From assembly GCF_055900595.2 (NCBI RefSeq), contig NZ_CM148325.1: a stretch of DNA of 64,000 nt; one strand, 5' to 3'. The notes beneath the pieces are model-generated. The model searched no databases. It saw only the letters and a program-made list of their open reading frames with translations, and was not told the origin of the DNA. Shown piece by piece: positions 1 through 44,563 of the stretch. Every line of letters starts with the position of its first letter. Within the stretch, counting starts at the first letter, position 1. A program made the translations under genes and the position numbers.

Positions 1-315
1 ATGATCCGCAAAGCCTTTGTCATGCAGGTTAACCCCGACGCCCACGAAGAGTATCAGCGTCGGCATAATCCAATCTGGCCGGAACTGGAAGCAGTGTTGA
101 AATCTCACGGTGCGCATAACTACGCCATTTACCTCGACAAAGCGCGTAATCTGCTGTTTGCCACGGTAGAGATTGAATCTGAAGAACGGTGGAATGCGGT
201 AGCCAGTACTGATGTTTGCCAACGTTGGTGGAAGTATATGACCGACGTTATGCCAGCTAACCCGGATAACAGCCCAGTCAGTAGCGAGCTGCAAGAAGTG
301 TTTTACCTGCCTTAA
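1..315 (+). CDS. rhaM: L-rhamnose mutarotase (104 aa, complete)
   Basis: ORF translation matches RhaM/YiiL as recalled; begins at window position 1. Confidence 0.9.
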
Positions 316-355
316 TGAGTTGCGGTGCCGGAAAATATCCAGCACCGCGCCTTCA

Positions 356-1750
356 TCAGAAGAAGTATTTAAAGCGAACGCGTGCGCCGTAACGGTCATC
401 AGTATCATCACCGTGTTTTTTATCACCGTCGCTATCCAGAATGGAGTAATAAGTACCAAGGTAAATATTAAAGTTCTCCATATCCATCACATTAGCGAAC
501 TGATAAGACGCATGAATGGTGTGAATGGTGTACGTCCCTTCATCATCAATCCAGCAGTCGTTATCACAAACTACACCGCTGAATTCATCAATCTTATTGT
601 GCGCGTAGATATAACCCAGCTCGAAACGTTTCCACAGCGCGTTAATCCCGGCAGTGAAATCTTTTTCATTATTAGCATCTAAATAGGCGGTATTAAGATT
701 AACCACGACGCCATTTTCCGGATCCGTTTTCAGGCCATTCCAGGTCATGCTCATACCATAGCCGGTACGATCGGACTGATCGACAAAATTACCCTTGCTA
801 TCGGTATAACCATAAGCATTATTTACTACGTTCGCTTCCATCGCTGCGGAAACGGTGAATTCTTCCGTCGGCGACCAGGCAATTACCGGACGCAGATAAG
901 CAACATTTTTCTGCTGCTCCATATCGCGTCCATGATAATTACCGTCATTATATAAAGATGTTCCGTCTTCAAGTAACGTGTTTAATTCAAAATACCAGTT
1001 ATCGAGTTGTTTGCTGACGAGGAAATTACCGCCAGCGTTAGAGCGCCCTCGGCCCTCTTTCATCATATAGATATAACCGCTGCCATCGTCATAAAGATCG
1101 TTCGCAGTATTACCGGAATGTTCAACAAAGGTATCCTGATTCAGCGGGAACATATCGTAGGCTTCAAAACGGCCTACTTTGACCTTCCAGTCGTTTTCTT
1201 TGCCAAAGAAGAATACCGCATCATCGATATTTACTGAACCGTGCATATCCCCCAGCGGTTGTGCGGAGAACCCGGCGAAATAACCATTATCCAGTTTTCG
1301 CATACCATCAAAACCTAACAGAATACGACCATTGAGATTCCACTGTTCATTAGTGGGATCGCTATTCACATCAGCGTTGGTCATTGCCAGCAGGCCATGA
1401 TTACTTTCCGCATCCATATTAAATTCTACGTCGCCGTAGATTTTTAAATCGCCATAACCTGAAAGCAAAAGATTAGGTGAGGTGGAATTTTTCTTTGCAG
1501 ATTCCGCCGTTGCCTGTCCATTAACCGGCGTATTGCCCTGGGCAGCTTTAATTTCGCGGATCTCAGCGGCTTGTTGTGTCTGCAGCTGTTTAACCTGGCT
1601 CTCTGCTTTTGCTGCCCGCATTTCTGCCGCTTCCAGGCGTTCTTCCAGCAATGCCATGCGTTGTTCCAGCGTTAAATGCTGTGTTTTTGCCATTCCGGTA
1701 CTACATGCCAATAATAAACCGATGGCTAAAGATAATGTCGATTTTTTCAT
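356..1750 (-). CDS. Putative outer-membrane sugar-type porin with N-terminal coiled-coil extension (464 aa); not in K-12 as recalled
   Basis: Signal peptide MKKSTLSLAIGLLLACSTGMA; 50-aa heptad-like E/A/Q/L-rich segment; C-terminal ...RFKYFF typical of beta-barrel OMPs; SD agggaa upstream of ATG. Confidence 0.6.
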   Translation of the reverse strand: MKKSTLSLAIGLLLACSTGMAKTQHLTLEQRMALLEERLEAAEMRAAKAESQVKQLQTQQAAEIREIKAAQGNTPVNGQATAESAKKNSTSPNLLLSGYGDLKIYGDVEFNMDAESNHGLLAMTNADVNSDPTNEQWNLNGRILLGFDGMRKLDNGYFAGFSAQPLGDMHGSVNIDDAVFFFGKENDWKVKVGRFEAYDMFPLNQDTFVEHSGNTANDLYDDGSGYIYMMKEGRGRSNAGGNFLVSKQLDNWYFELNTLLEDGTSLYNDGNYHGRDMEQQKNVAYLRPVIAWSPTEEFTVSAAMEANVVNNAYGYTDSKGNFVDQSDRTGYGMSMTWNGLKTDPENGVVVNLNTAYLDANNEKDFTAGINALWKRFELGYIYAHNKIDEFSGVVCDNDCWIDDEGTYTIHTIHASYQFANVMDMENFNIYLGTYYSILDSDGDKKHGDDTDDRYGARVRFKYFF

Positions 1751-2226
1751 TATTTACGTTCCCTGAAATAAAAGAGACCCTACGCTTTCCAAAAGGAATA
1801 CGTATATAGAGAAATATAAGGTGTGCACTTTCTAATTTTTAATCCAACTTCAGCAGGCCGATGGATAGTATCCCGCTGCATAATATGAGTAAATCCGCTG
1901 ATTTCCTGGAACGTGAGGAATATAACAATAGTGCCGTTTTTAACTAAATATCGTAAAAAATATTAGATATAATTCACGCTGACTCATAAGCCACAAATAT
2001 AAATAACCTTGCTGCAAAATATGTGCGGCAGTTAAACATTCACAACATCATTAAATAATGATTTTTTATTCACTGCATTTATTTTTCCCATCAATATGTG
2101 CCTTACACCGCAAAATTTATCCTTCACTCTGCCTTATATTGTCACGACTTCACGACATATCCGCGCTCATCACAAAACCGCCCCGCCGTTACAATTAACT
2201 ATAATATTTTTTCATGGAGTCCAATA

Positions 2227-2673
2227 ATGGCAGCACTTACTGCAAGCTGTATTGACCTGAATATTCAGGGCAATGGCACTTATTCCGTTCTGAAGCAGTT
2301 GGCGACAATGGCGTTACAAAACGGTTTTATCACCGACTCACATCAATTCCTGCAAACCCTGCTGGTGCGCGAAAAAATGCACTCCACCGGTTTTGGTTCT
2401 GGTGTCGCCGTGCCGCACGGTAAAAGCGCCTGTGTTAAACAACCGTTCGTATTATTCGCTCGCAAAGCGCAGGCCATTGACTGGAAAGCCAGCGATGGCG
2501 AAGACGTCAATTGCTGGATCTGCCTCGGCGTGCCGCAAAGTGGCGAAGAGGATCAGGTCAAAATCATCGGCACACTGTGTCGCAAAATTATCCACCAGGA
2601 TTTTATCAACCAACTGCGACAAGGCGACGCCGTCCAGGTGCTTGCTTTGTTAAATCAAACCCTCAGCTCATAA
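2227..2673 (+). CDS. frvA: PTS fructose-like EIIA component (148 aa)
   Basis: Translation matches FrvA as recalled; ATG at 2227 chosen over the longer in-frame ORF from 2098. Confidence 0.85.
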   Translation: MAALTASCIDLNIQGNGTYSVLKQLATMALQNGFITDSHQFLQTLLVREKMHSTGFGSGVAVPHGKSACVKQPFVLFARKAQAIDWKASDGEDVNCWICLGVPQSGEEDQVKIIGTLCRKIIHQDFINQLRQGDAVQVLALLNQTLSS

Positions 2674-2683
2674 GGAAGTGGCG

Positions 2684-4135
2684 ATGGAGTCATCCTTACG
2701 TATTGTCGCGATCACCAACTGCCCCGCCGGGATCGCTCACACCTACATGGTGGCGGAAGCCCTGGAACAGAAAGCCCGTTCTCTCGGTCATACCATTAAA
2801 GTTGAAACTCAAGGATCAAGCGGCGTCGAAAACCGCTTATCCAGCGAAGAGATTGCCGCTGCCGATTACGTGATTCTCGCTACCGGGCGTGGCCTGAGCG
2901 GTGATGATCGCGCGCGATTTGCCGGGAAAAAGGTTTATGAGATTGCCATCTCCCAGGCGCTGAAAAATATCGACCAGATTTTCAGTGAATTACCGACAAA
3001 CTCACAACTTTTTGCCGCAGATAGCGGCGTGAAGCTCGGCAAACAGGAAGTGCAAAGTGGCAGCGTAATGAGCCATCTGATGGCGGGCGTCTCTGCGGCG
3101 CTGCCGTTTGTCATCGGTGGCGGTATCCTGGTGGCGCTTGCCAACATGCTGGTGCAGTTCGGTTTGCCGTATACCGATATGTCGAAAGGTGCGCCGTCGT
3201 TTACCTGGGTGGTTGAATCCATCGGTTATCTCGGTTTCACCTTTATGATCCCCATCATGGGCGCTTATATTGCCTCGTCGATTGCCGATAAACCCGCTTT
3301 CGCTCCGGCGTTTCTGGTTTGTTATCTGGCGAACGACAAAGCCCTGCTCGGCACCCAGTCTGGCGCGGGCTTCCTCGGTGCGGTGGTGCTTGGGCTGGCG
3401 ATTGGCTATTTCGTCTTCTGGTTCCGTAAAGTGCGCCTTGGCAAAGCATTACAACCGCTGCTCGGTTCCATGCTGATCCCGTTCGTTACTCTGCTGGTTT
3501 TTGGCGTACTGACTTACTACGTTATCGGACCGGTGATGTCCGACCTCATGGGCGGGTTGCTGCACTTCCTGAACACCATTCCTCCGTCAATGAAGTTTGC
3601 GGCGGCGTTTCTGGTTGGTGCGATGCTGGCATTCGATATGGGCGGCCCCATCAACAAAACCGCCTGGTTCTTCTGCTTCTCTCTGCTGGAAAAACACATT
3701 TACGACTGGTACGCCATCGTCGGCGTTGTCGCGCTAATGCCGCCTGTCGCGGCGGGTCTTGCGACGTTCATTGCGCCCAAACTGTTTACTCAACAGGAAA
3801 AAGAAGCCGCCAGTAGCGCCATAGTGGTCGGTGCCACAGTCGCAACCGAACCGGCTATTCCTTACGCTCTGGCAGCCCCGTTGCCGATGATTACCGCCAA
3901 TACGCTGGCGGGCGGTATTACCGGCGTGCTGGTGATCGCTTTCGGAATCAAACGGCTGGCACCGGGTTTGGGTATCTTTGACCCGCTGATCGGCCTGATG
4001 TCGCCGGTAGGTTCATTTTATCTGGTGCTGGCGATTGGCCTCGCGCTGAACATTTCATTCATTATCGTCCTGAAAGGATTATGGTTACGCCGCAAAGCCA
4101 AAGCTGCGCAACAGGAGCTTGTCCATGAACATTGA
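2684..4135 (+). CDS. frvB: PTS fructose-like EIIBC component (483 aa)
   Basis: Polytopic membrane protein with N-terminal EIIB domain (CPAGIAHTYM); ATG at 2684; overlaps frvX. Confidence 0.85.
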   Translation: MESSLRIVAITNCPAGIAHTYMVAEALEQKARSLGHTIKVETQGSSGVENRLSSEEIAAADYVILATGRGLSGDDRARFAGKKVYEIAISQALKNIDQIFSELPTNSQLFAADSGVKLGKQEVQSGSVMSHLMAGVSAALPFVIGGGILVALANMLVQFGLPYTDMSKGAPSFTWVVESIGYLGFTFMIPIMGAYIASSIADKPAFAPAFLVCYLANDKALLGTQSGAGFLGAVVLGLAIGYFVFWFRKVRLGKALQPLLGSMLIPFVTLLVFGVLTYYVIGPVMSDLMGGLLHFLNTIPPSMKFAAAFLVGAMLAFDMGGPINKTAWFFCFSLLEKHIYDWYAIVGVVALMPPVAAGLATFIAPKLFTQQEKEAASSAIVVGATVATEPAIPYALAAPLPMITANTLAGGITGVLVIAFGIKRLAPGLGIFDPLIGLMSPVGSFYLVLAIGLALNISFIIVLKGLWLRRKAKAAQQELVHEH

Positions 4136-5195
4136 GTTACTGCAACAGTTGTGCGAAGCCAGCGCCGTCAGCGGCGATGAACAGGAAGTTCGCGACATTC
4201 TGATAAACACGCTGGAACCCTGCGTGAATGAGATCACCTTCGATGGTCTGGGCAGCTTTGTTGCCCGTAAGGGGAATAAAGGGCCGAAAGTTGCCGTTGT
4301 CGGGCATATGGATGAAGTCGGCTTTATGGTCACCCACATCGACGAGAGCGGTTTTCTGCGTTTTACCACCATTGGCGGCTGGTGGAATCAGTCGATGCTC
4401 AACCACCGGGTAACCATACGCACACACAAGGGAGTGAAAATCCCTGGTGTAATTGGCTCCGTCGCCCCACATGCGTTAACCGAAAAGCAAAAGCAACAAC
4501 CGCTGTCATTTGATGAGATGTTCATTGATATTGGCGAAAACAGTCGCGAAGAAGCGGAAAAACGCGGCGTGGAAATTGGCAATTTTATTAGCCCGGAAGC
4601 CAATTTTGCCTGCTGGGGCGAAGATAAAATGGTCGGCAAGGCGTTGGATAACCGCATCGGCTGCGCAATGATGGCTGAGCTATTGCAGACGGTGAATAAC
4701 CCCGAAATTACGCTGTATGGCGTTGGCAGTGTGGAAGAAGAAGTTGGGCTACGCGGGGCGCAAACCTCGGCTGAACACATTAAACCGGATGTGGTGATCG
4801 TGCTGGATACCGCTGTCGCGGGCGATGTTCCAGGCATTGATAACATTAAATATCCGCTGAAACTGGGCAACGGGCCGGGGCTGATGCTGTTTGACAAGCG
4901 GTACTTCCCCAACCAGAAACTGGTAGCAGCGTTAAAAAGCTGTGCCACGCAGAATGATTTACCGCTGCAATTTTCCACCATGAAAACCGGAGCGACGGAT
5001 GGCGGGCGCTACAACGTGATGGGCGGCGGGCGTCCGGTTGTCGCGCTGTGCCTGCCAACGCGTTATCTGCACGCTAACAGCGGCATGATTTCAAAAGCCG
5101 ATTACGATGCTCTGCTCACGTTGATACGGGATTTTCTGACCACCTTAACCGCGGAGAAAGTCAACGCGTTTAGCCAGTTCCGTCAGGTGGATTAA
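4125..5195 (+). CDS. frvX: M42-family peptidase/cellulase-like protein (356 aa)
   Basis: Translation matches FrvX as recalled; start overlaps frvB end; stop overlaps frvR start (TAATG). Confidence 0.85.
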   Translation: MNIELLQQLCEASAVSGDEQEVRDILINTLEPCVNEITFDGLGSFVARKGNKGPKVAVVGHMDEVGFMVTHIDESGFLRFTTIGGWWNQSMLNHRVTIRTHKGVKIPGVIGSVAPHALTEKQKQQPLSFDEMFIDIGENSREEAEKRGVEIGNFISPEANFACWGEDKMVGKALDNRIGCAMMAELLQTVNNPEITLYGVGSVEEEVGLRGAQTSAEHIKPDVVIVLDTAVAGDVPGIDNIKYPLKLGNGPGLMLFDKRYFPNQKLVAALKSCATQNDLPLQFSTMKTGATDGGRYNVMGGGRPVVALCLPTRYLHANSGMISKADYDALLTLIRDFLTTLTAEKVNAFSQFRQVD

Positions 5196-6943
5196 TGCTA
5201 AACGAACGCCAGTTAAAGATTGTCGATCTGCTGGAGCAACAGCCACGCACGCCTGGCGAGCTGGCGCAACAGACTGGCGTTTCCGGCAGGACCATCCTGC
5301 GTGATATTGACTATCTCAACTTTACCCTTAACGGCAAAGCCCGCATTTCCGCCAGTGGCAACGCGGGCTATCAGCTGGAAATCTTCGAGCGTCGCAGCTT
5401 TTTTCAGTTGCTGCAAAAGCACGATAACGACGATCGGCTGCTGGCGCTGTTATTACTGAATACCTTCACTCCCCGTGCGCAACTCGCCTCGACGCTTAAT
5501 TTGCCAGAAACCTGGGTAGCAGAGCGCCTGCCCCGCCTGAAACAGCGCTATGAACGCAGTTTTTGTCTCGCCAGTCGCCCCGGCTTAGGTCATTACATAG
5601 ATGAGACGCAAGAGAAACGCATTATTTTGCTGGCAAATCTGTTACGCAAAGATCCGTTTTTAATTCCGCTGGCGGGCGTAACACGAGACAATTTTCAACA
5701 ATTAACCACCGCCTGCGAAAAGCAACGTCGCTGGCCGCTGATGCAAGGCGACTATCTCTCAAGCCTGATTCTGGCTATTTACGCGTTGCGTAATCAGCTT
5801 ACTGACACATGGCCTGAATATCCCGGTAGCGAGATAAAACAGATTGTTGAATATAGCGGCCTGTTTCTTGGTGATAACGCTGTAAGAACGTTGACGGGGT
5901 TGATAGAAAAACAGCATCAACAGGCGCAGGTTATTTGTGTCGATAATGTGCTGGCATTGCTGCAAAGGGTGCCGGGCATTGCGTCATTGAATATTATTGA
6001 TACGCAGCTGGTTGAGAATATTACCGGGCATTTATTACGTTGCCTTGCCGCGCCGGTGTGGATTGGAGAGCACCGCCAAAGCAGCATGAATAACCTGAAA
6101 GCCGCCTGGCCTGCGGCCTTTGATATGAGTCTGCACTTTATTACGCTACTGCGTGAACAACTCGATATTCCCCTTTTCGACAGCGATCTGATTGGTTTGT
6201 ATTTTGCCTGTGCGCTGGAACGGCATCAAAACGAACGCCAGCCGATCATTTTGCTCTCTGATCAAAACGCGATTGCCACTATTAATCAGCTCGCCATTGA
6301 GCGCGACGTCCTGAATTGTCGGGTGATTATTGCCCGCTGCTTAAGCGAACTGGTTGCCATTCACGAAGAGATTGAGCCGTTATTGATCATTAATAACAGC
6401 CATTATTTACTGGATGACGCGGTCAATAATTGCATCACTGTAAAAAATATCATTACGGCTGCCGGTATCGAACAAATAAAACATTTTCTGGCGACGGCAT
6501 TTATTCGCCAGCAACCGGAGCGTTTTTTTTCTGCCCCCGGAAGTTTTCATTATTCGAATGTACGTGGTGAAAGCTGGCAACATATTACCCGGCAAATATG
6601 TGCGCAATTAGTGACGCAACACCACATTACCGCCGATGAAGCACAACGGATCATCGCCCGCGAAAGCGAAGGCGAAAACCTGATTGTTAATCGTCTCGCC
6701 ATCCCACATTGCTGGAGCGAACAGGAACGACGTTTTCGTGGATTTTTTATTACCCTCGCCCAACCGGTTGAGGTGAATAACGAAGTAGTTAACCATGTGC
6801 TGATCGCCTGTGCCGCCGCCGATGCGCGTCATGAGCTAAAAATATTTAGCTATCTTGCCAGCGTATTGTGCCAGCATCCGGCAGAGGTTATTGCCGGGTT
6901 AACAGGATATGAGGCATTTATGGCGTTACTTCACAAGGGGTGA
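5195..6943 (+). CDS. frvR: frv operon transcriptional regulator (582 aa)
   Basis: N-terminal HTH followed by PRD/EII-like domains; operon position. Confidence 0.85.
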   Translation: MLNERQLKIVDLLEQQPRTPGELAQQTGVSGRTILRDIDYLNFTLNGKARISASGNAGYQLEIFERRSFFQLLQKHDNDDRLLALLLLNTFTPRAQLASTLNLPETWVAERLPRLKQRYERSFCLASRPGLGHYIDETQEKRIILLANLLRKDPFLIPLAGVTRDNFQQLTTACEKQRRWPLMQGDYLSSLILAIYALRNQLTDTWPEYPGSEIKQIVEYSGLFLGDNAVRTLTGLIEKQHQQAQVICVDNVLALLQRVPGIASLNIIDTQLVENITGHLLRCLAAPVWIGEHRQSSMNNLKAAWPAAFDMSLHFITLLREQLDIPLFDSDLIGLYFACALERHQNERQPIILLSDQNAIATINQLAIERDVLNCRVIIARCLSELVAIHEEIEPLLIINNSHYLLDDAVNNCITVKNIITAAGIEQIKHFLATAFIRQQPERFFSAPGSFHYSNVRGESWQHITRQICAQLVTQHHITADEAQRIIARESEGENLIVNRLAIPHCWSEQERRFRGFFITLAQPVEVNNEVVNHVLIACAAADARHELKIFSYLASVLCQHPAEVIAGLTGYEAFMALLHKG

Positions 6944-6998
6944 ACTGTGTCGGATGCGCCGCATCCGACACTGCATTTATCACCAAAATCAAAAACAT

Positions 6999-8054
6999 TT
7001 AACGCAGGCGATTATAATCATCGACCATTTCGTTGTACTCACGTAATGCTCTCGGGAAAGAGTCGTCGACCATCCAACTTGTGTTTGCATCCTGAAGTTG
7101 CTCTTTATCCCAGTCAGAATACGGAACTTTATCTCTGACGCGGCGAACATATTTTTTAGCCTCGAGCTGATATTGATCTGCCGAACTAATGAACGAGGAA
7201 TTCATGCCGCCTTTATCCGCTTCTTTGGCCTGTGCCACCAGCGTTTCAAGTTCAGTCACTTTCTTCATTGCCGCTTCTGCATCAAACTTATCTTGCGATA
7301 TCAGGTTATTAATTTGTTTCGCTGAAATCATGACTGCCAGAGAGTAGTAGTTGAATGTTTTCCCTTCTCTTTGTTCAATATTTTGCAGTTCCGCAAGCTG
7401 GCGCTTATCGTTAATTTCCTGAATCGCCGCATGATAAGATTCTGCTACAGGTTCAAAGGCTTCAAGATTTTTTAAGAATGTCTGGTGCAGCGTTTTCCCT
7501 TTCGCAAACGCATCGTCTTTATAATTTTCCTGGGTGTAATATTTTTCCATTTCGTTAATGGTATTACCCAACGCCACGGCAGCATCAATATAACTCACCG
7601 CCACGCCATCAATAGGTTGCAGCGCAGGCGTTAACGCCACAGCACTTTTTACGCCTTTTTCACACTCAGCGAGGTTGGATTCACTAATACCGTAGATACC
7701 ATAAACAGTACGCTCTTCACCGGTAGGGCCCTGTTTAAAATCTTTCAGCCAGTCAGCATAACGCGCCAGACTGCTCTGTACAGGGATCTGTAACTTGTTG
7801 TAGCACTTGATATAGACATCCATTTTTTCGTCGAAAACCGCTTGTTCATCGACCACCGGTTGAGCAGGCGTTTCAGGTTTAACTTCTGCTTTTGCAACGG
7901 GAGCTTCAGCAGGTTTCGCTTCAGGAGCTGGTGCGGCAGGTTGACTATTGGCAGGCGGGGGCGTTTCTGTTTCGGATTTTTTATCGTCACAACCCGTGAG
8001 ACCGAGGGCCATTATGGCGACTATAATAGCGGAAGATAATAAATTCCTTTTCAT
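6999..8054 (-). CDS. yiiG: Lipoprotein YiiG (351 aa)
   Basis: Lipobox LGLTGC after signal peptide; low-complexity P/A/E linker; matches YiiG as recalled. Confidence 0.85.
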   Translation of the reverse strand: MKRNLLSSAIIVAIMALGLTGCDDKKSETETPPPANSQPAAPAPEAKPAEAPVAKAEVKPETPAQPVVDEQAVFDEKMDVYIKCYNKLQIPVQSSLARYADWLKDFKQGPTGEERTVYGIYGISESNLAECEKGVKSAVALTPALQPIDGVAVSYIDAAVALGNTINEMEKYYTQENYKDDAFAKGKTLHQTFLKNLEAFEPVAESYHAAIQEINDKRQLAELQNIEQREGKTFNYYSLAVMISAKQINNLISQDKFDAEAAMKKVTELETLVAQAKEADKGGMNSSFISSADQYQLEAKKYVRRVRDKVPYSDWDKEQLQDANTSWMVDDSFPRALREYNEMVDDYNRLR

Positions 8055-8264: not shown

Positions 8265-10571
8265 CTACATCCCGTAGCGTTCAGCAATAGCAGCATGCTT
8301 CTCTTCATTCGCCCCGGCTTCTTTGGCGAGACGCCACCAGCACAATGGATGTTCCCAGTCAGCGGTCAATTCGTGCAAGGTCTTATCGATATCACCTTTA
8401 GAAATTGAACGCGGCGCACTGATAACAAAGTAGAATGCAGGCAGCGGTTCAGCGCCTTCTCCTTGATGACTGTCCGTTAATGTATAGTCGTCATTACTGT
8501 TGCTCCAGTAGTACCAGTTTCGTTCACGGAGCGCCTCACGGAAAGTATTAAACTCTTCTTCACCAGGCATGACACCTTCGCAGAACCAGGACTCGCCGTA
8601 TTCGGTCGGGATAATGGTTTGCAGGCAGGCATAAAGTGGCGTGAAATTCTTCCGTTCTTCCTCATCCTCTGGTTGGGTATTCAACATTTCTGCATCGAAT
8701 ACCACAACCTCATCAACATGTTGCGGATAATCGGTGCGGTAAGTTGGCTCAATGATCCTTGCTGTTACCGGCCCAATACGTTGAGCATAGTAATAGCGGT
8801 ATTCATAATTTTCCCGGAAGCGGATGTTTAACAGCCCCCATTTTTCGTCAATAAAACCTTCACCTTCCGTAAGTTCGATTTCCAGTTCAGCAGCAATAGC
8901 ACGAACCAAATCCCATTGTTGCAGGATGCTGGCGGTCGCCATGATATCCCACTGGAGATTGCGAATATCTTCTTCACGGCTAATCATCAGTTGCTGCAAT
9001 TGTTGTAAATAATCCAGCTGTCGATCCCAGGCTTCCTGTTTTTGTGCTGCCCAGGAGCACATGCGATAAACGCCAACCCACTCACGCCCTTTTTCGTGTT
9101 GCAGCAACTGTTGCCCAATCGACTCCAGTTCACTCCAGTCTTCCTGTTGGTTGATCACTCGCGCACGGAACCACAAGGCCATATGTAGCAGCCCCGCCTG
9201 TTCATACTGCTTCGCCAGGTGCTCAATGGTTTGCAGATCGTCACGGTGGAGCAATAAATCCAACAGATCGAAGCAAAGACCATTATCTTCCTGGATGTGG
9301 CTTTCGACGTAGCGTTGCAGAAGTTCAATCGACTCATCAATCGCATTACAGGCGTTTAACGCATTGACCAGTTTGCCCAGCAATTCCGCATCATCTGGCG
9401 CGTTCAGGTAAGCGCGGCGGAATGTTTCGACGTCTTTTTCTGGATCTGGTTGCGTTTCTTCATCGCTATTTTCAGGTACTTCTACAACCGGACGAGCAAG
9501 CAACTCTGCTTCTTTGGCGGCGATTTTTTCACTCAGTTCGAGAAACTCACGATCAACCCCCAGTAACACGCGTAATTTTGGAATGTGTCGCTGGGCCAGT
9601 TTCATCGCTATTTTGGCAACCCAGACGGATTCACGCTCCAGCGCCAGGGTAATTTGCAGTTTCGCCAGATTCACCACTTTACGGTGCGCGCCGGCCTGCG
9701 AACGATGCTCCAGCATTTTTTGGATAATGCGCGCCAGCTGCCAGTTGTTTCTTTGTGGATGGCGAGGCAGTAGCGCAGTGATGATCTTGATCCAAATCCC
9801 CCACGAAAAAGGCGTAAGATCAGCCCAGCGCGGCAACTCAGCCCATACGTCTTCGTCCTGTCCACACAACGCCATGATATACAGTTTTTTCAACTGATAA
9901 CTGATACGGTCGCGCCCCCAGTAATCATTTTCTTCTGCCAGTTCATCAATCAATTTGCGTGCTTCATCGTAACGCTGCAGTTCAATCAAAATATCGGCAC
10001 GGGTATTCAATAATGCTTCAATATCATCGTCACCGGATGCTTTAACCGCGTCGATTTGCCGATCCAGGTACGCCAATGCCTCTTCTGCTCTTTTGGAATC
10101 TATCAGTGCGCTGGCATATTCGGTGGACAAACACTGAAAACAGCTCCAGGTTGCATCAATTCGCGCAATGGTTTCTTCACATACTGCCATGCGTTCATTC
10201 GCCCAGCCAGGCGCATCAATATTTTCGTAGCAGGCAGATAAATCCTGGGTAACGCAGATAGATTGCGGGCAATCTTTTGCCTCTTCCCGGTGTGCTTTTT
10301 CAAACAGCGCCACCACGTCTGGCAGCACTTTTTCGCCTTCTTCGCGGTTAGTCAGACGATGGCGCATTTCCCAGTGACCAATAAAAATCTCCAGCCAGGG
10401 ATTTTTCGCCACCTGGGTAAGCGCTTTTACTTCTGGTAATAGCGAATCGCATTTTTCCATTTGCAGGTGCATAACGCTTTCCGAATAATCATCAATAAGC
10501 TGCGGAATATACTCCTGTCCGGCATCGCGTAATTCCTGACTATATTTATTGTACCATTCCCATATATTCAT
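8265..10571 (-). CDS. Hypothetical 768-aa acidic helical protein, co-operonic partner of the HtpG-like ATPase (accessory)
   Basis: Long ORF; ATG 1 nt after the stop of the upstream gene; SD aagga; no enzyme motif recognised by eye. Confidence 0.6.
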   Translation of the reverse strand: MNIWEWYNKYSQELRDAGQEYIPQLIDDYSESVMHLQMEKCDSLLPEVKALTQVAKNPWLEIFIGHWEMRHRLTNREEGEKVLPDVVALFEKAHREEAKDCPQSICVTQDLSACYENIDAPGWANERMAVCEETIARIDATWSCFQCLSTEYASALIDSKRAEEALAYLDRQIDAVKASGDDDIEALLNTRADILIELQRYDEARKLIDELAEENDYWGRDRISYQLKKLYIMALCGQDEDVWAELPRWADLTPFSWGIWIKIITALLPRHPQRNNWQLARIIQKMLEHRSQAGAHRKVVNLAKLQITLALERESVWVAKIAMKLAQRHIPKLRVLLGVDREFLELSEKIAAKEAELLARPVVEVPENSDEETQPDPEKDVETFRRAYLNAPDDAELLGKLVNALNACNAIDESIELLQRYVESHIQEDNGLCFDLLDLLLHRDDLQTIEHLAKQYEQAGLLHMALWFRARVINQQEDWSELESIGQQLLQHEKGREWVGVYRMCSWAAQKQEAWDRQLDYLQQLQQLMISREEDIRNLQWDIMATASILQQWDLVRAIAAELEIELTEGEGFIDEKWGLLNIRFRENYEYRYYYAQRIGPVTARIIEPTYRTDYPQHVDEVVVFDAEMLNTQPEDEEERKNFTPLYACLQTIIPTEYGESWFCEGVMPGEEEFNTFREALRERNWYYWSNSNDDYTLTDSHQGEGAEPLPAFYFVISAPRSISKGDIDKTLHELTADWEHPLCWWRLAKEAGANEEKHAAIAERYGM

Positions 10572-10572
10572 T

Positions 10573-12408
10573 TTATTTTCCTTGATTAATTAAGACAGGA
10601 ATAACCTGAGTAAAATCTTCCAGTGCCTGGTGTAAATCCCACTGCTGTTCTTTATTACCGCTGGAGCACAAAATCACTTTCAGCGATTTTAATAACCGTA
10701 ATGCTGCCGCTGGCTGTTGATGGTGTTGTAATGCCGTCACCAGTTGCATGACACAGGGGTTATTAAGATTGATATACAGACTTGAAGTTTTAGTCTTTTG
10801 GATTTGCGAGGTAAATTGCCGCGCCAGCATTAACGCTGCGGTGCTGATGCGTTTATCTGCGTCATCCTGTTCGAGAATTTGTTTTAATTCTGCTTCGCGG
10901 TCTGGCGTAACCACTAACGGTAAAACGGCGGGTTCGAAGCGGGAGATAATTAATTGCTCGCCATCGCAAAGATGCTCTTCCAGATAAGCAACCTGCTCTT
11001 CGGGTAATTCTGCCAGGCTGAACAACTGCTCATTACCCGTTTGCGTACCGACTTCGATAATCCGGCAGTGATATAACAGCGCCCAACGACGTAAAAATGG
11101 CACCACCGCATAACGATCGCCACGGGCTACGGGCCGTTGCAGAATATGAAACAACATCTCTTCAAAACCGCCGTCGCGGCTTAACAGAATATGAATACTG
11201 TTATTAACGCGTAAATCCTTCGCCAGCAGCGCACCTTTTGACGTTGGCACCTGCAGGCGATCTTTGAGTAAATCACACAGACGATCATCACACAAGGCCG
11301 CACCCAGCAACGCTTCGTTGTGGCGCATTAATACACGCCGCCAGATTTCTGGCTGATTTTGTGCGAGATCGGACAAACCAGAAATCAGCGCCTCTTTTAA
11401 CGCCTCCTGCACCGCAACCCAGGTTTCGTCCCGCTGGAGATCTTCCCGGCTCGCCGTAGGCGTTAGTTTCGATGACTCAATCACGCCGCCAATAAATCCG
11501 GCCCAGGGAGGTAACAACTCACGCGCTTCATCATCCAGTAACATACCGCGCAAAAACAGCGACAGGTTACGGTTATCGCTGGTGCCGTAGGTTGCGCCAT
11601 CCTGAATCCATAAAATCCCAACCGCGTCGCTCATCCCCACGGGCACCACCGGAATGGTGCAAATCGGTTCGAAGGAGGATTCAAACTGTGCGGCAAAGGC
11701 GAGATTTTTACGCTGTACCAGCGCGCGGTGCATGGTTACGCCTTCAGGGGCAACTTCACGCCACGGTGGTTGCAGTTTATTCACCGGCTCGCGGGCATCA
11801 CCGACATAGACTGGTTCGTGCAGCAATATGCAATAGCGTGAAAGAACGCGGTTCAGCAAATTGTTACTCGCCAGATGGCTGTACTCTTCTTTGAGCGTCA
11901 GAATCACCTGCGTACCCGTTTCCGAGGACTGATGCGGCGTAACGGTATATTTTTGCCCGTCGGTAGAGTGGTATTTCCAGCTCTGATCCGGCGTTTGCCA
12001 GGATGTGGTCAACACCGTGACCTCTTTTGCCAGTACAAAGGCCGACAAAAAACCGAGGCCGAACATACCAATTAAACCGGTGTTGTCATCCTGCTGGCGC
12101 AACATTCGGGTATAACCCACGCCCACTGTAGCAAGGAAGCCGTGAATTTCGCTTTCTGTCAGACCCGCACCGGTATCAGTAATAGTGATAGTGGACTTCG
12201 CCACGTCAGCCACCACACGAATTTGGTTATCCTTTGGCGCATCGGGCTGCTCAATCCTGCGACGCACAATCGCATCATGGCCGTTCTGCACCAGCTCGCG
12301 CACGGCAACTACGGGAGTGGAGTAAAGATGCTTACTAAGCACCTCAATTAAACCGTTTAAATTAACTTCTGTAGAATATGAACTGCCAGGTAACTGTAAT
12401 GTACTCAT
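10573..12408 (-). CDS. Divergent Hsp90/HtpG-family GHKL ATPase paralogue (611 aa, accessory)
   Basis: N-terminal motifs RELVQNGHDA (cf. HtpG RELISNASDA), ITDTGAGL (cf. SDNGVGM), GMFGLGFLSAF (cf. GQFGVGFYSAF); length close to HtpG. Confidence 0.75.
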   Translation of the reverse strand: MSTLQLPGSSYSTEVNLNGLIEVLSKHLYSTPVVAVRELVQNGHDAIVRRRIEQPDAPKDNQIRVVADVAKSTITITDTGAGLTESEIHGFLATVGVGYTRMLRQQDDNTGLIGMFGLGFLSAFVLAKEVTVLTTSWQTPDQSWKYHSTDGQKYTVTPHQSSETGTQVILTLKEEYSHLASNNLLNRVLSRYCILLHEPVYVGDAREPVNKLQPPWREVAPEGVTMHRALVQRKNLAFAAQFESSFEPICTIPVVPVGMSDAVGILWIQDGATYGTSDNRNLSLFLRGMLLDDEARELLPPWAGFIGGVIESSKLTPTASREDLQRDETWVAVQEALKEALISGLSDLAQNQPEIWRRVLMRHNEALLGAALCDDRLCDLLKDRLQVPTSKGALLAKDLRVNNSIHILLSRDGGFEEMLFHILQRPVARGDRYAVVPFLRRWALLYHCRIIEVGTQTGNEQLFSLAELPEEQVAYLEEHLCDGEQLIISRFEPAVLPLVVTPDREAELKQILEQDDADKRISTAALMLARQFTSQIQKTKTSSLYINLNNPCVMQLVTALQHHQQPAAALRLLKSLKVILCSSGNKEQQWDLHQALEDFTQVIPVLINQGK

Positions 12409-12719: not shown

Positions 12720-13556
12720 TTAATTATGAATCAATCGCTGCGGATGAGTATAAACCGTTGCCCGACCCGGCTTACAAAAGCCCACCAGCGTCAAATTACA
12801 ACGCTCAGCCACTTCTACGGCAAGCGTGGTCGCGGCAGACACCGCAAACAAAATCTCGACGCCGCACATCGCTGACTTTTGCACCATTTCATAACTGGCA
12901 CGACTGGAAACCAGCACCGCACCTTGCAGCCAGCTTTCCCCTTCTTGTGACCGGCGGCCTAACAGTTTATCCAGCGCCACATGGCGACCCACGTCTTCAT
13001 GCCCGCCTACCAGTTCGCCAGATGGCAACATCCAGGCAGCGGCGTGAGTACAACCAGTCAGTTGCCCCACTGGCTGGAAATCATTGAGATGGCGTAATGC
13101 ATCATCCAGTTTGTTGAGATCAAATGTCTGAGTGAACGGCAGCGACTGCACCGGTTTACCGATGTCATTAAGTTGCTCCACGCCGCACACGCCACATCCC
13201 GTACGTCCCGCCAGTGCCCGACGACGCTCCTTCAACCCCATAAAGCGGCGGCTGGAAAGCTCAATTTGCACTTCCAGACCATTACAGGAAGGAACGACAT
13301 CCATACCGAAGATATCGCGCGGACTTTCGATAATCCCCTCGGAAAGCGAAAAACCGAGCGCAAAGTATTCAAGGTCTTTGGGCGACGCCATCATCACCAC
13401 ATGCGAAATGCCGTTGTAGACCAGCGCAACGGGAACCTCTTCCGCCACCTCATCTAACCGTGGGTGTTGTAAATCGTCACGCCGCCATAACTCAATTTGA
13501 CGAACACCTGTGACATTTGTCACATTTTTGATTTCTTTTTGCTGTGTTTTTTTCAC
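12720..13556 (-). CDS. fdhD: Formate dehydrogenase accessory sulfurtransferase FdhD (278 aa)
   Basis: Translation matches FdhD as recalled; divergent from fdoG. Confidence 0.9.
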
Positions 13557-38120: not shown

Positions 38121-38813
38121 ATGAAAAAGATTAATGCAATAATTTTATTATCTTCTCTGACCTCTGCCTCGGTATTTGCTGGCGCATACGTCGAAAACAG
38201 GGAGGCATATAATCTCGCCTCCGATCAGGGCGAGGTTATGCTACGTGTGGGTTATAACTTCGATATGGGCGCGGGTATCATGTTAACCAATACCTACAAC
38301 TTTCAGCGCGAAGATGAACTAAAACATGGATATAACGAAATTGAAGGCTGGTATCCGTTATTTAAACCAACCGATAAATTAACCATCCAGCCCGGTGGAT
38401 TAATTAATGATAAGAGCGCCGGTTCCGGTGGTGCAGTATATCTGGACGTCAACTATAAATTTGTACCATGGTTTAATCTGACAGTGCGAAATCGCTATAA
38501 CCATAATAACTACAGTTCAACAGATTTGAACGGGGAGCTGGATAATAATGACACCTATGAAATTGGTACCTACTGGAATTTCAAAATCACCGATAAATTC
38601 TCCTATACATTTGAGCCACATTATTTTATACGCGTAAATGACTTTAATAGCAGCAATGGAAAAGATCATCATTGGGAAATCACTAATACCTTCCGTTACC
38701 GTATTAATGAACACTGGCTGCCTTATTTCGAATTACGCTGGTTAGACCGCAACGTCGAGCCGTATCACCGCGAGCAAAACCAGATTCGTATCGGAACGAA
38801 GTATTTCTTCTGA
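38121..38813 (+). CDS. ompL: KdgM/OmpL-family small outer-membrane porin (230 aa)
   Basis: Signal peptide, beta-strand-rich, C-terminal ...GTKYFF. Confidence 0.85.
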   Translation: MKKINAIILLSSLTSASVFAGAYVENREAYNLASDQGEVMLRVGYNFDMGAGIMLTNTYNFQREDELKHGYNEIEGWYPLFKPTDKLTIQPGGLINDKSAGSGGAVYLDVNYKFVPWFNLTVRNRYNHNNYSSTDLNGELDNNDTYEIGTYWNFKITDKFSYTFEPHYFIRVNDFNSSNGKDHHWEITNTFRYRINEHWLPYFELRWLDRNVEPYHREQNQIRIGTKYFF

Positions 38814-39025: not shown

Positions 39026-39874
39026 ATGGAAAAGAAATTTTTTATGGATTGGGATAATGAAATCCCGCAAGAAGAGTTTATTAACAATATTTTAGCCGAT
39101 GAAGACCTGCCTAAAATCCGCTCTCTGATTATTGGTCGTTGGGGGGAGTGCTGGGATGAGGAAAGTTGCCAACCAATAATCGACATGTTTGTTGAACATG
39201 CCGAACGCTTTGCTCATCTCGAATCCCTATTTATCGGCGATATGGAAAGCGAAGAGTGTGAAATTTCGTGGATAAAACAAGGGGATTATTCTCGTCTGTA
39301 TGCTGCGCTGCCGAACCTCAAAAAGCTGACAATTAAAGGTACTCAGGGCCTGGAACTGGGAGAAATCGCCCATGACAAACTGGAGCATCTGGAAATTATC
39401 TCTGGCGGTACGCCGTGTGACGTGTTCGCCTCATTGCAAAATGCCCAACTGCCTGCGTTAAAAACACTTATCGTTTATATTGGCGTTGAGAATTATGGTT
39501 TTGATGCATCGCTGGATATCGTAATGAAGCTGGCGTCGAAATCCCTCTTCCCGAGCCTGACGCATCTTGGCCTGGTGAACAGCGAAGAGCAAAACGAAAT
39601 CGTCCGCCGCGTGCTGGAAAGCGACATTCTGCCGCAACTGGAAGTGCTGGCACTCTCCTGCGGTACGCTTACCGACGAAGGTGCAGAGCATCTTCTCAAA
39701 CATGCCGATCGCCTTAGCCATCTGAAACTGCTGGATTTGTACCATCATTACCTGACAGAAGAGATGCAGAAAAAACTGCAAAAAACACTGACATGTACTC
39801 TCGAATTATCAGAAGCGCTAACGCCTGAAGTCTATGATGACGAAATTTATATGCATGCGATGTATACCGAATAA
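39026..39874 (+). CDS. Cytoplasmic repeat-rich helical protein, LRR-like (282 aa); first gene of accessory six-gene operon
   Basis: Repeated L-x-x-L-x-L segments; no signal peptide; SD aagga; I believe it corresponds to an uncharacterised Salmonella 'STM4015'-type family (unverified). Confidence 0.55.
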   Translation: MEKKFFMDWDNEIPQEEFINNILADEDLPKIRSLIIGRWGECWDEESCQPIIDMFVEHAERFAHLESLFIGDMESEECEISWIKQGDYSRLYAALPNLKKLTIKGTQGLELGEIAHDKLEHLEIISGGTPCDVFASLQNAQLPALKTLIVYIGVENYGFDASLDIVMKLASKSLFPSLTHLGLVNSEEQNEIVRRVLESDILPQLEVLALSCGTLTDEGAEHLLKHADRLSHLKLLDLYHHYLTEEMQKKLQKTLTCTLELSEALTPEVYDDEIYMHAMYTE

Positions 39875-39934
39875 ATGACATTTATTGGGAGAGAGTCATC
39901 TCTCCCATTATTTATCACAGAAAAGGAATTCTTC

Positions 39935-40921
39935 GTGATTACGCTAATTGGTCATCCTGAAAGCAAACGCACATTTTATTTTTGCCAGGCAGCGTCACGC
40001 TTACAGGAACATATCAACGTAGTGAGCTATGATCAAGCACTTACCCTGCTCTTAAATAAAGGCATGGTAAAAATCGATCCCCCCTTACATCAGGAAACAG
40101 ATATTCGCTTAATTAATACGGTTAGCCAAAACTATATTACTTTTTTACAAAAAATGGCTACCAGAAGGGAGATCCGTTTTATTAACTCACCAGAAGGTAT
40201 TATTCATCTTCTGGATAAACGCCACTGTAAGCAACGATTAGTCGAACACGCGATCCCGACACCGCCAATATTAGCGGATGATATCCGTAGCTACGATCAA
40301 CTGATCGCCTGTATGCGCAGCGAAAAGGTTTATCGCGTGTTTATTAAGCCGAATTTCGGATCAGGGGCCGCCGGGGTGCTGGCTTTGAGTCTACATCCCG
40401 GCGATAACCGTCAGGTGCTTTATTGCGCCATCCAGGTTGCAGGTGACAGGCTGGTGAACAGTAAACATATTATCCGCTATGAAAACAGCGGTGATATTAC
40501 GTTGATTGTGAATGCTATTTTACAACAAGACAATATTATCGAACGCTGGCTGGCAAAAGCCAGAGTGGGCAATAAAAGCTACGATTTACGCATCGTGTAC
40601 GTTAATGGTGAAATCGTCTGGCGGGTTGTCAGAACATCATCACAGCCGATCACCAATTTACATTTACAAAATGAAGCTATCCGTTTTGCCGATCTTAATT
40701 TACCCGTAGAAAAAGTAGCTGAAATTGATACGCTTTGTCTCAACGCCATGACCCTCTATCCGGACGTACACATTGCCGGGCTTGACGTATTACTCACGCA
40801 AAATTTAACACCCTATATTATCGAAATTAACGGCCAGGGCGATCTTATTTATCAGGACACCTGCGAAAAAAACAAAATTTATCAACGCCAGATTCAGGTA
40901 ATGAGAGAACATCATGTATAA
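39935..40921 (+). CDS. ATP-grasp-like protein (328 aa from GTG 39935; alternative ATG 39875 would give 348 aa)
   Basis: Fold guess from RimK/glutathione-synthetase-like features (KPNFGSGAAGV glycine-rich loop, ...IIEINGQGD); SD aaggaa precedes GTG. Confidence 0.5.
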   Translation: MITLIGHPESKRTFYFCQAASRLQEHINVVSYDQALTLLLNKGMVKIDPPLHQETDIRLINTVSQNYITFLQKMATRREIRFINSPEGIIHLLDKRHCKQRLVEHAIPTPPILADDIRSYDQLIACMRSEKVYRVFIKPNFGSGAAGVLALSLHPGDNRQVLYCAIQVAGDRLVNSKHIIRYENSGDITLIVNAILQQDNIIERWLAKARVGNKSYDLRIVYVNGEIVWRVVRTSSQPITNLHLQNEAIRFADLNLPVEKVAEIDTLCLNAMTLYPDVHIAGLDVLLTQNLTPYIIEINGQGDLIYQDTCEKNKIYQRQIQVMREHHV

Positions 40922-43871: not shown

Positions 43872-44563
43872 TCTGGCGGTTAATCGCGCTCGATTTAGAC
43901 GGCACATTGCTGAACAGCAAGAAGATGATTTCCCCTGCGTCTGTTTCGGCACTGCAAAGCGCACAACAGGCAGGTGTGAAAATTATCCTCGCCACCGGAC
44001 GTTCGCACAGCGAAGCCCTGCCTTATTACCAACAATTGCAGTTAACCGAGCCGATGATTTGCTGTAACGGCAGCTATCTTTATCATCCGCGCCAGCGGCA
44101 AATATTGCGTCCGCTGGCGCTTGATATCCACAAGGTGGAAAGGCTACGACTCTGGTTTTCACAACAAATATTGCAGCCAAATATTTATACGTACGATGAT
44201 TTTGTTTTGCAGATTAGCCTGATACACCGCAAGGCTTCGTTATTGCGCCAGACAGAGGAATTTGCCCGACAAGAATTATCGCTGGCCTGTAGCTGGTCCT
44301 GGCATCATCAACTGGATATTACACAGGTGGGGTGTGAGAAAGGCAAAAGTCTGGCCTGGTATGCCCGACAGCAAAATATCGTGCTGGATGAAATCATCGC
44401 CTTTGGCGATAACGATAATGATGCGGGGATGCTGCGGATGGTAGGCAAAGGGATTGCGATGGGCAATGGCAGTTCGCTGGCAAAAGTCAGTGCTGACCGC
44501 GTTATTGGTCACAACAACACAGATGCTATTGCGGATTTTCTTGATGCGCAGGGTTTCAGATGA
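43868..44563 (+). CDS. HAD-superfamily (Cof-type) phosphatase (231 aa)
   Basis: Motif I LIALDLDGTLL; motif GDNDNDAGM near C-terminus; ATGA overlap with upstream gene. Confidence 0.7.
   Translation: MIWRLIALDLDGTLLNSKKMISPASVSALQSAQQAGVKIILATGRSHSEALPYYQQLQLTEPMICCNGSYLYHPRQRQILRPLALDIHKVERLRLWFSQQILQPNIYTYDDFVLQISLIHRKASLLRQTEEFARQELSLACSWSWHHQLDITQVGCEKGKSLAWYARQQNIVLDEIIAFGDNDNDAGMLRMVGKGIAMGNGSSLAKVSADRVIGHNNTDAIADFLDAQGFR

Follow-up and report, generated by a model that had tools for sequence, protein, structure and literature searches.

The DNA analysed here, a 64,000-nucleotide stretch of contig NZ_CM148325.1 (assembly GCF_055900595.2; the window), raises a simple question: which neighbour, if either, is served by a porin gene lying between the L-rhamnose genes and the cryptic frv PTS operon? 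The original prediction cast this gene as a porin dedicated to letting the Frv substrate through the outer membrane, regulated together with frvA. The layout from which it set out is accurate: a 464-aa ORF with signal peptide, coiled coil and a barrel ending in ...KYFF, as the ORF, the AlphaFold (AF2) model and the heptad register confirm, which meets rhaM tail to tail and is separated from the divergent frvA by a 476-bp AT-rich spacer. The main features of the locus are as follows.

1..315, plus strand: rhaM, encoding L-rhamnose mutarotase, the last gene of rhaBADM (ORF list, RefSeq annotation).
323..349: inverted repeat GCGGTGC...GCACCGC between the two convergent stops, read by eye from the sequence.
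356..1750, minus strand: porin ORF, ATG start, 464 aa, C-terminal end ...RFKYFF.
1751..2226: composite AT-rich spacer, with a porin promoter module at ~1751-1930 and an frvA-proximal module at 2092-2226.
2227..6943, plus strand: frvA (2227-2673), frvB (2684-4135), frvX (4125-5195) and frvR (5195-6943) (RefSeq annotation).

The porin gene and rhaM converge with 40 bp between them and are thus not co-transcribed; the porin gene and frvA, which starts at 2227 on the plus strand, are divergent and likewise not co-transcribed. The inverted repeat may act as a transcript-end hairpin, one lacking a T-run, and does not figure among the predictions of a terminator scan. The porin gene has a GC content of 44.5% and the window as a whole 49.2%. 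The frv operon is intact, with Pfam matches to EIIA_2 (frvA), IIB and EIIC (frvB), Peptidase_M42 (frvX) and HTH_11 plus EIIA_2 (frvR), and our literature search on frvA, frvB and frvR found no paper naming an Frv substrate. The identity of the porin gene is already known: its product, WP_000749944.1, is annotated as a 'carbohydrate porin' in the RefSeq genome annotation, and an O157:H7 study named the gene rafY2 and likewise found it without linkage to raf genes (PMC4809568). No raf genes flank it in the window or at any E. coli chromosomal locus inspected. An ATPase/TPR gene pair near the porin gave only weak, partial TmtA matches in PADLOC.

The porin belongs to the RafY glycoporin family (PF16966; TCDB 1.B.15). 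Residues 104-464 align to the full length of the Porin_8 profile (PF16966, positions 1-372 of 372) at 513.9 bits against a cutoff of 25 (E=3.1e-154), which upholds its description as an accessory outer-membrane sugar-type porin. The profiles proposed for it in advance, LamB/ScrY (PF02264), OprB and KdgM, all failed to match; RafY takes their place. A search of NCBIfam matched no family, and a PDB sequence search returned only chance matches (E ~0.8, dehydroquinase), so the porin has no solved relative by sequence. In TCDB, family 1.B.15 is the family of RafY; 16 strands are predicted there too, and among the references listed RafY figures as a general diffusion pore. The protein divides into four parts.

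1688..1750, minus strand: signal peptide, codons 1-21, MKKSTLSLAIGLLLACSTGMA (model helix 3-16; putative cleavage site).
1541..1669, minus strand: periplasmic coiled-coil helix, codons 28-70 (AF2 helix, heptad register, weak Sugarporin_N match).
1466..1540, minus strand: low-complexity disordered linker, codons 71-95 (pLDDT <50 at residues 72-95).
359..1465, minus strand: beta-barrel, codons 96-464, ~16 strands.

The protein has the RafY-family layout of signal peptide, outer-membrane beta-barrel and C-terminal aromatic residue. Its N-terminus reads MKKSTLSLAIGLLLACSTGMA followed by KT; a lipoprotein reading of the 'LLAC' within the signal peptide was rejected because orthologues lack the Cys, leaving no conserved lipobox. 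In the AF2 model (mean pLDDT 82), residues 28-70 form a single long helix, and one heptad register places hydrophobic residues at 79% of its a/d positions, compared with 29-43% in the other six. The Nissle 1917 porin carries an in-frame deletion exactly one heptad long. The similarity of this extension to that of ScrY, also part of the original prediction, fits the helix and the heptad register; PF11471 (Sugarporin_N) matches residues 27-54 only weakly (15.3 bits, E=0.024, below the 25.7-bit cutoff) and is listed for several close homologues in precomputed Pfam annotation. The strands of the barrel are counted in the predicted model rather than in a solved structure. After strand 5 comes a 46-residue loop (195-240) in which D206, Y228 and R236 are family-invariant and R234 and G235 occur in at least 90% of family sequences. 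As modelled, the barrel is closer to the 16-stranded trimeric porins than to ScrY or LamB, and the protein has neither the LamB profile match nor the 18-stranded barrel by which a LamB/ScrY member is recognised.

Comparison with other systems separates fold from family and placement. ScrY, of the ScrY/LamB family (PF02264; PDB 1A0S, 1MPR), likewise has a periplasmic N-terminal coiled-coil extension and shares with the porin the presumed role of oligosaccharide entry. Likeness to the 16-stranded trimeric porins, above all DcaP of Acinetobacter baumannii (PDB 6EUS) but also OprP, Omp32 and the Vibrio chitoporin VhChiP, extends to fold class alone: these share 8-13% sequence identity with the porin, fall into other Pfam families and have substrates (dicarboxylates, phosphate, chitosugars) unlike those presumed here. 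The window itself contains a second accessory sugar-related porin beside carbohydrate transporters, OmpL (~38121-38813), whose gene closes the yihO/yihP/yihQ sulfoquinovose operon. OmpL is much smaller (230 aa), and its gene lies within its catabolic operon and runs in the same direction, the layout expected of a dedicated porin; the rafY2-frv pair is not so arranged.

If the porin were the dedicated channel of the Frv PTS, the two should occur together. We counted raw presence and absence in 5,426 complete E. coli genomes. The porin is present in 2,557 (~47%) and frv in 4,186, with an intact porin-frvA junction in 1,375-1,378; both are found in ~1,378, porin only in ~1,180, frv only in ~2,808 and neither in ~60. 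Carriers of the porin include O157:H7, the BL21-derived Rosetta2-DE3 and Nissle 1917, and K-12 lacks it. Each gene set is missing as a discrete segment, with clean boundaries on both the porin and the frv sides (blastn).

317..2091: segment missing in K-12-type genomes, comprising the porin gene and its promoter (blastn boundaries).
2210..7017: segment missing in frv-less, porin-only genomes, comprising frvABXR and the 3' end of yiiG (blastn boundaries).

In K-12, an unrelated 164-bp filler replaces 317..2091 and the spacer is kept only from 2092 on (135 bp); the idea that the filler is what remains of a degenerated porin gene or porin promoter was rejected, its best local score being 20 against a shuffled mean of 21.4. 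In the frv-less examples, AP022173 and E. coli Nissle 1917, the spacer is kept through 2209. One porin accession is identical in an frv-positive and an frv-negative strain, and the ORF is intact in every match inspected. dN/dS stands at ~0.02 among E. coli sequences; for the barrel compared with Citrobacter, Kluyvera and Trabulsiella it is 0.03-0.05. The porin is thus under strong purifying selection in strains without frv too, and porin and frv are separately dispensable in E. coli, their presence and absence being independent.

Across 34 enterobacterial species whose porin loci we compared, frvA directly adjoins the porin in 5; azlCD stands between the two in 7, and the remaining 22 have no frvA at the locus. 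The dedicated-channel reading draws on these 12 frv-linked species (in the 7 separated ones frv lies within 2.6 kb), on the divergent, adjacent arrangement in the ~1,378 E. coli genomes, and on the existence of other porin-PTS pairs, ScrY with ScrA and BglH with BglF. Against it, the genes that intervene in 7 of the 12 (azlCD and an HTH regulator) are unrelated, and to our knowledge the PTS-linked porins already described sit inside their operon and are co-transcribed with it rather than divergent. The original prediction had staked itself on a correlation between porin and frv across genomes; with the porin-only and frv-only E. coli genomes counted above, and frv absent from the locus in most species, the proposal is already largely refuted on its own terms, and we consider a dedicated Frv channel, co-regulated with frvA from the spacer, very improbable.

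The constant partner of the porin across genera is rhaM, not frv. In 24 of the 34 species rhaM converges on the porin at a distance of no more than 1 kb, and in 29 rhaM is found within 5 kb; in Citrobacter the orthologues adjoin rhaM without frv. Such constancy could mean that the porin serves the rhamnose locus, admitting rhamnose-containing oligosaccharides or glycosides that feed rhaBADM, and distant RafY-family porins do stand last in AraC-MFS-GH78 alpha-L-rhamnosidase clusters of Klebsiella spallanzanii and Budvicia. However, the porin converges with rhaM and is served by a conserved promoter of its own, the porin locus showed no rhamnosidase, and K-12 keeps an intact rha locus without the porin. 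L-rhamnose is a small monosaccharide that requires no special porin, and vertical inheritance alone would give a constant adjacency. We consider a rhamnose-dedicated porin just as improbable as an Frv-dedicated one.

What lies on the other, upstream side of the porin varies with the species: the frv PTS, rafRAB, a GPH permease with GH32 and a beta-helix enzyme, or a cellobiose-type PTS EIIC with GH4. Genes of rafRAB adjoin the porin in 9 of the 34 species; in Klebsiella, Raoultella and Enterobacter the orthologue stands directly downstream of rafRAB, in the same rhaM-adjacent position. Other RafY-type porins end clusters of an MFS or GPH permease with a glycosidase (GH36, GH32, GH78), and a Salmonella RafY-type homologue is induced on lactulose (PMC13304739).

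The spacer, exactly 476 bp (1751-2226) at 35.3% GC, carries a predicted promoter for the porin.

1912..1927, minus strand: CRP-like site TGTTATATTCCTCACG, a putative binding site centred ~61-62 bp upstream of the predicted start.
1888..1893, minus strand: predicted -35, TTTACT, 18 nt downstream of the CRP-like core.
1865..1870, minus strand: predicted -10, TACTAT, with a 17-nt spacer.

These elements predict a transcription start near 1858 and a 5' UTR of ~108 nt. Apart from the window, 35 loci were scanned, and in 30 of them the CRP-like core, -35 and -10 recur at constant distances from one another, unchanged with frv, azlCD or nothing recognisable upstream. The CRP-like site carries 1.9-2.0 bits per position against ~0.5 in the flanks, and in 27 aligned loci a -35 consensus TTtaC stands at the constant 18-nt distance; the -10 is only weakly conserved. 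Within the 64-kb window the CRP-like pattern gives 4 matches at 3 sites against 0.72 expected. One further place where the search pattern matches is the glnA-typA spacer, home to a known CRP-dependent glnA promoter. The left half of the porin site is imperfect (TGTTA, not TGTGA) and its 6-nt spacer unusually conserved (1.34 bits), so another regulator could bind there. A generic sigma-70 scan found fewer promoter-like sites than in shuffled sequence and did not pick the conserved promoter; the minus-strand site that it did propose (1842..1813) was rejected as the porin promoter, as it is not conserved in orthologues. An Rfam search of positions 1-2700 (E<=1) returned nothing, so the long 5' UTR contains no known riboswitch or sRNA.

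That a CRP-like site with class-I promoter geometry is kept whatever the neighbour suggests an autonomous gene under catabolite control. It also speaks against the spacer as a single regulatory unit shared with frvA, as had been proposed: the porin promoter module persists in frv-less species, and frvA of K-12 retains only 135 bp of spacer. Repeats within the spacer are short, chance-level matches, with no operator-like repeat common to the porin and frvA sides.

The closest known system is the mobile RafY of the rafRABD-rafY (pRSD2-type) operon, for which we used the porin that follows rafR-rafA-rafB-rafD on an E. coli plasmid and a chromosomal island. It has the same family profile, the same length of 464 aa and 77.6% identity to the porin; the two share the order of signal peptide, coiled coil, linker and barrel and the C-terminal FKYFF. 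The barrels are 84-85% identical and the N-terminal 95 residues 51-52%. The chromosomal gene stands alone beside rhaM, without rafR, rafA, rafB or rafD, whereas mobile rafY lies inside the raf operon, and the CRP-like promoter module belongs to the chromosomal gene and is absent upstream of mobile rafY. All 200 bootstrap replicates of a neighbour-joining tree place mobile RafY together with the chromosomal porins of E. coli, and mobile rafY appears to descend from an Escherichia-type chromosomal porin gene. Plasmid RafY is reported to complement lamB and scrY mutants. It is reportedly also a wide general-diffusion channel that admits oligosaccharides, for which the O157:H7 study and TCDB cite Ulmke 1997 and Andersen 1998.

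The raf connection also allows a less favourable interpretation, that the porin is a silent relic that contributes nothing, being either the remains of a chromosomal rafRAB-Y cluster whose catabolic genes have gone or part of an H-NS-silenced AT-rich stretch. The rafRAB genes directly upstream of the orthologue in Klebsiella, Raoultella and Enterobacter would fit, as would the 35% GC of the upstream DNA and the loss of the porin from half of the E. coli genomes. In a survey of 58 E. coli isolates, moreover, rafY was found in 45, only 23 of which had the complete rafABD operon (PMC12987596). However, the low dN/dS and the intact ORFs speak for a maintained function, and the promoter module is kept across genera. 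Citrobacter and Kluyvera share the CRP-type promoter without raf, so raf looks inserted in the Klebsiella group rather than lost in E. coli. We regard a functionless remnant as scarcely plausible.

Taken together, the locus is probably explained by a chromosomal, stand-alone RafY glycoporin, a wide sugar channel with its own CRP-type promoter, inherited vertically beside rhaM and independent of frv. The signal peptide would export the protein, and its C-terminal ~370 residues would form an outer-membrane barrel that is, judging by the model, probably 16-stranded and probably trimeric, with a long conserved loop after strand 5 folding inward and a ~43-residue coiled-coil stalk reaching into the periplasm on its disordered linker. 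By analogy with the 78%-identical plasmid protein, the porin is most likely a wide diffusion channel, which, where di- to tetrasaccharides (raffinose-family sugars, sucrose, maltodextrins) are dilute, would lower the outer-membrane barrier to them; uptake would then fall to whichever inner-membrane transporters a strain has. The gene is probably transcribed alone, from the predicted promoter ~110 nt upstream of the start codon, and, given the CRP-like site at about -61.5, its expression would come on when catabolite repression is lifted. It would be an old resident beside rhaM in Enterobacteriaceae, with frv a positional neighbour, lost or kept independently. As adjacency to frv recurs in 12 of the 34 species, an opportunistic link between porin and Frv is possible in strains that have both. 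A broader version, with a small chance of being right, casts the porin as a catabolite-controlled outer-membrane gate that stays in place while the 'sugar-cassette slot' beside rha varies, a generalist channel for whichever cassette is present, Frv included where both occur, from which mobile raf took its rafY.

The practical importance of the stand-alone glycoporin is small. The gene is best annotated as a RafY-family glycoporin (rafY2), an assignment that says nothing on the substrate of the cryptic Frv PTS. Its conserved CRP-like promoter offers a testable prediction of when the porin is switched on. The chromosomal gene looks like the source of mobile rafY, not like a stray copy derived from it, which reverses the direction implied by the name 'rafY2'. 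For the species, some 47% of complete E. coli genomes would encode an extra, probably wide, outer-membrane channel absent from K-12, one that could alter how oligosaccharides are scavenged in the gut and might also change permeability to bulky solutes.

The porin gene lies between rhaM and the frvABXR PTS operon in the following arrangement:

1..315: rhaM, convergent with the porin gene
356..1750, minus strand: porin ORF, 464 aa, C-terminus RFKYFF
start at 2227: frvA, divergent from the porin gene

The porin–frvA spacer is exactly 476 bp long, with a GC content of 35.3% against a window average of 49.2%. The ORF, the annotated orientation of rhaM and frvA, the spacer length and the computed GC content all agree with the original prediction, whose description of this locus was accurate in all respects. 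The sole strong Pfam answer for the protein is PF16966, "Porin-like glycoporin RafY" (E=3.1e-154), the entire profile aligning to residues 104–464. Membership in the LamB/ScrY, OprB or KdgM families had been suggested for checking, and none of these profiles matched the porin in the Pfam search; NCBIfam holds no model for it, and no solved structure is related to it by sequence. The identical protein in RefSeq, WP_000749944.1, is named "carbohydrate porin", and an O157:H7 comparative study describes "a rafY homolog annotated as rafY2" in strains without rafRABD (PMC4809568). In a separate survey, rafY was found in 45 of 58 E. coli isolates, only 23 of which carried the complete rafABD operon (PMC12987596). 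The porin is an already-annotated protein of the RafY glycoporin family, encoded on the chromosome. This family is small, with 233 matches in a library of 1.84 billion proteins that holds one representative per cluster at 50% identity, and most of its full-length distant members in this library lack the N-terminal extension. The raf-operon porin, the final gene of rafR-rafA-rafB-rafD-rafY on plasmids and an integrase-flanked island, is 77.6% identical to the window porin overall, with 84–85% identity in the barrel and ~51% over the first 95 residues.

An AlphaFold2 model derived from 48 family members (mean pLDDT 82, pTM 0.72) divides the protein as follows:

residues 3-16: signal-peptide helix
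residues 28-70: single continuous helix
residues 72-95: disordered linker
residues ~96 to 464: barrel

The DSSP segments of the modeled barrel fit 16 transmembrane strands, which bears out the proposal that the protein is a β-barrel. A 46-residue loop (residues 195–240) follows strand 5 in the model, the same position as the constriction loop of classical porins. Within it, D206, Y228 and R236 are invariant across the family, and R234 and G235 are kept in at least 90% of sequences. Helix 28–70 has a single clear heptad register, with 79% hydrophobic residues at the a/d positions compared to 29–43% in the other six registers. The porin of E. coli Nissle 1917 (locus L094, 4001–5374) has lost in frame exactly seven residues, RMALLEE, corresponding to residues 31–37; this one-heptad deletion preserves the register of the coiled coil, and the barrel is otherwise 99% identical. 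As regards the suggested likeness to the ScrY N-terminal coiled coil, the match of the ScrY-type extension PF11471 to the window porin (residues 27–54, E=0.024) is weak and falls below threshold; several close homologues have PF11471 in their precomputed Pfam annotation.

The porin had been proposed as a dedicated outer-membrane entry step for the Frv substrate, so that its presence should correlate with frv. Among 5,426 complete E. coli genomes (coverage ≥80%), the porin gene is present in 2,557, frvA-frvX in 4,186 and an intact porin–frvA junction in 1,375–1,378. By subtraction, ~1,378 genomes (25%) carry both, ~1,180 (22%) the porin only, ~2,808 (52%) frv only and ~60 neither. The raw association is negative, since frv is carried by 54% of genomes with the porin versus 98% of those without it; these counts are free of phylogenetic correction and mirror a few lineage-level events. 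The three arrangements are clean indels. Genomes of the K-12 type lack 317–2091, comprising the porin and 341 bp upstream, and hold an unrelated 164-bp filler in its place, with frv remaining intact. Porin-only genomes (AP022173, Nissle 1917) lack 2210–7017, comprising frvABXR and the 3′ end of yiiG, and retain the spacer almost whole. The AP022173 porin protein is identical to that of the window, and dN/dS is 0.02 relative to another frv-less E. coli strain, which together argue that the porin is under strong constraint where frv has been lost. Relative to Citrobacter, Kluyvera and Trabulsiella, dN/dS of the barrel is 0.03–0.05.

Other features lie elsewhere in or next to the window. The interval between fabY and yiiE (~20978–22792) contains a transposase gene together with a truncated hypothetical gene, and the same pair is found in frv-less AP022173. 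Two accessory genes inserted between yiiG and fdhD (8265–12408, minus strand) and absent from K-12 encode an "ATP-binding protein" of 611 aa and a TPR protein of 768 aa, which may form a defence-like pair; in PADLOC, the ATPase matches TmtA only weakly and in part (E=5e-6 over ~120 residues), and the TPR protein has no match. The accessory, Salmonella-named STM4011–STM4015 cluster between typA and ompL (~39026–44562) encodes two radical-SAM proteins, a hydrolase and a HAD hydrolase, and its STM4015 homologue is annotated as frameshifted. yihT (sulfofructosephosphate aldolase, ~28994–29872) is an annotated pseudogene with an internal stop, so the sulfoquinovose pathway may be broken in this strain, and rhaT, just beyond the window, likewise carries an annotated internal stop.

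A cross-genus scan, covering one genome per species, yielded 80 loci, 34 of which hold a porin at least 66% identical to that of the window. rhaM is convergent with the porin within 1 kb in 24 of these 34 and within 5 kb in 29. Directly divergent frvA (<700 bp) occurs in 5/34, namely an Escherichia cryptic-clade strain, two Trabulsiella and two Enterobacter. In a further seven, frvA lies 2.1–2.6 kb away, and the four inspected (L018, L025, L033 and L042) have azlCD and an HTH/cupin regulator in between. One of these, L033, is titled Chryseobacterium sp. 18061, has a typical Enterobacteriaceae frv-azlCD-porin-rhaM locus and is probably mislabelled or contaminated. rafRAB adjoins the porin in nine loci, and both frv and raf are absent in 15. 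Citrobacter orthologues (81–85% identical) have rhaM on one flank and an HTH regulator with azlCD on the other, without frv. The slot upstream of the porin holds a GPH permease, a GH32 enzyme and a β-helix protein in Klebsiella michiganensis, and a cellobiose-type PTS EIIC with a GH4 enzyme in Superficieibacter. More distant RafY-family porins (56–65% identical) stand alone or at the end of cscB-like permease/GH32, GPH permease or AraC–MFS–GH78 α-L-rhamnosidase clusters. The last type is Pfam-confirmed in Klebsiella spallanzanii (L044, 1882–8359), where the genes are co-oriented with the porin last, and is assigned from ORF size and similarity in Budvicia diplopodorum (L051, 1761–8371); both porins are ~62% identical to that of the window. 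The rhamnosidase clusters are of note as the E. coli porin always adjoins the rhamnose operon. The porin tree broadly tracks genus boundaries, as expected under vertical inheritance at the rhaM position. Adjacency to frv is an old synteny, repeatedly interrupted or lost. The E. coli counts and the cross-genus synteny thus show no correlation with frv, and the proposed partnership with the Frv PTS fails on presence/absence, selection and synteny alike.

Across genera, the 260 bp upstream of the porin start codon are poorly conserved (46% mean column identity) apart from one sharp island. The motif TGT[T]A-N6-TCAC[G/A] occurs once in 30 of 35 loci scanned besides the window, 177–242 nt before the ATG; it is absent only upstream of mobile rafY and at loci in which a raf or GH32 cluster immediately precedes the porin. 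Anchored on this motif, information content reaches 1.9–2.0 bits per position in both half-sites against ~0.3–0.5 bits in the flanks. A fixed 18 nt downstream lies TTTAC(N) (1.06 bits), followed after a further 17 nt by a TAnnnT-type hexamer (0.70 bits). The corresponding elements in the window are:

1927..1912, minus strand: predicted CRP-like site, TGTTATATTCCTCACG
1893..1888, minus strand: predicted -35, TTTACT
1870..1865, minus strand: predicted -10, TACTAT

This arrangement predicts a transcription start near 1858, and the sequence geometry would center the CRP-like site at ~-61.5, class-I CRP sites lying at about -61.5. Across the 64-kb window, a loose CRP-type pattern matches at only three places versus 0.72 expected. 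One match, TGTGACATTTGTCACA (13509–13524), is a near-perfect palindrome inside the 5′ end of fdhD, upstream of divergent fdoG; another, TGTGATCGCTTTCACG (46584–46599), lies in the glnA-typA spacer, which is known to contain a CRP-dependent glnA promoter. We read the conserved upstream module as a putative autonomous, catabolite-controlled porin promoter, and the imperfect left half-site and unusually conserved 6-nt spacer make another regulator possible. On the frv side, only the frvA-proximal 135 bp of the spacer are common to K-12, at ~75% identity. A 118-bp stretch just ahead of frvA (2095–2212; K-12 locus L003, 6484–6601) is likewise ~75% identical, compared to ~93.5% overall in the BLAST alignment of spacer and frv operon (2092–7200), so the frv promoter region differs markedly between this porin-carrying haplotype and K-12; for example, K-12 reads TAAAAT at the place of TATAAT in the window. 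No Rfam families and no convincing shared repeats were found in the porin–frvA spacer.

In a neighbor-joining tree, the mobile RafY proteins (L009, 8001–9395; L095, 8003–9397) cluster with the E. coli chromosomal porins, with Citrobacter and Kluyvera orthologues outside (bootstraps 200/200 for the barrel and 198/200 for the full length). Mobile rafY and the E. coli chromosomal gene differ at a dS of ~0.9, whereas against the other genera dS is saturated. The chromosomal porin shares both its position and its promoter module with orthologues in other genera. Most simply, an Escherichia-lineage copy of the gene would have been taken up by the mobile raf element, and "rafY2" would not be a stray copy of plasmid rafY. 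We hold this with moderate confidence, given a distance-based method and one genome per species.

It seems improbable to us that the porin is a generalist gate, serving any sugar cassette, Frv included, that fills the neighboring slot. Taken together, our analysis suggests that the porin is most likely a wide channel for the diffusion of oligosaccharides, under CRP control and with a coiled-coil stalk in the periplasm.
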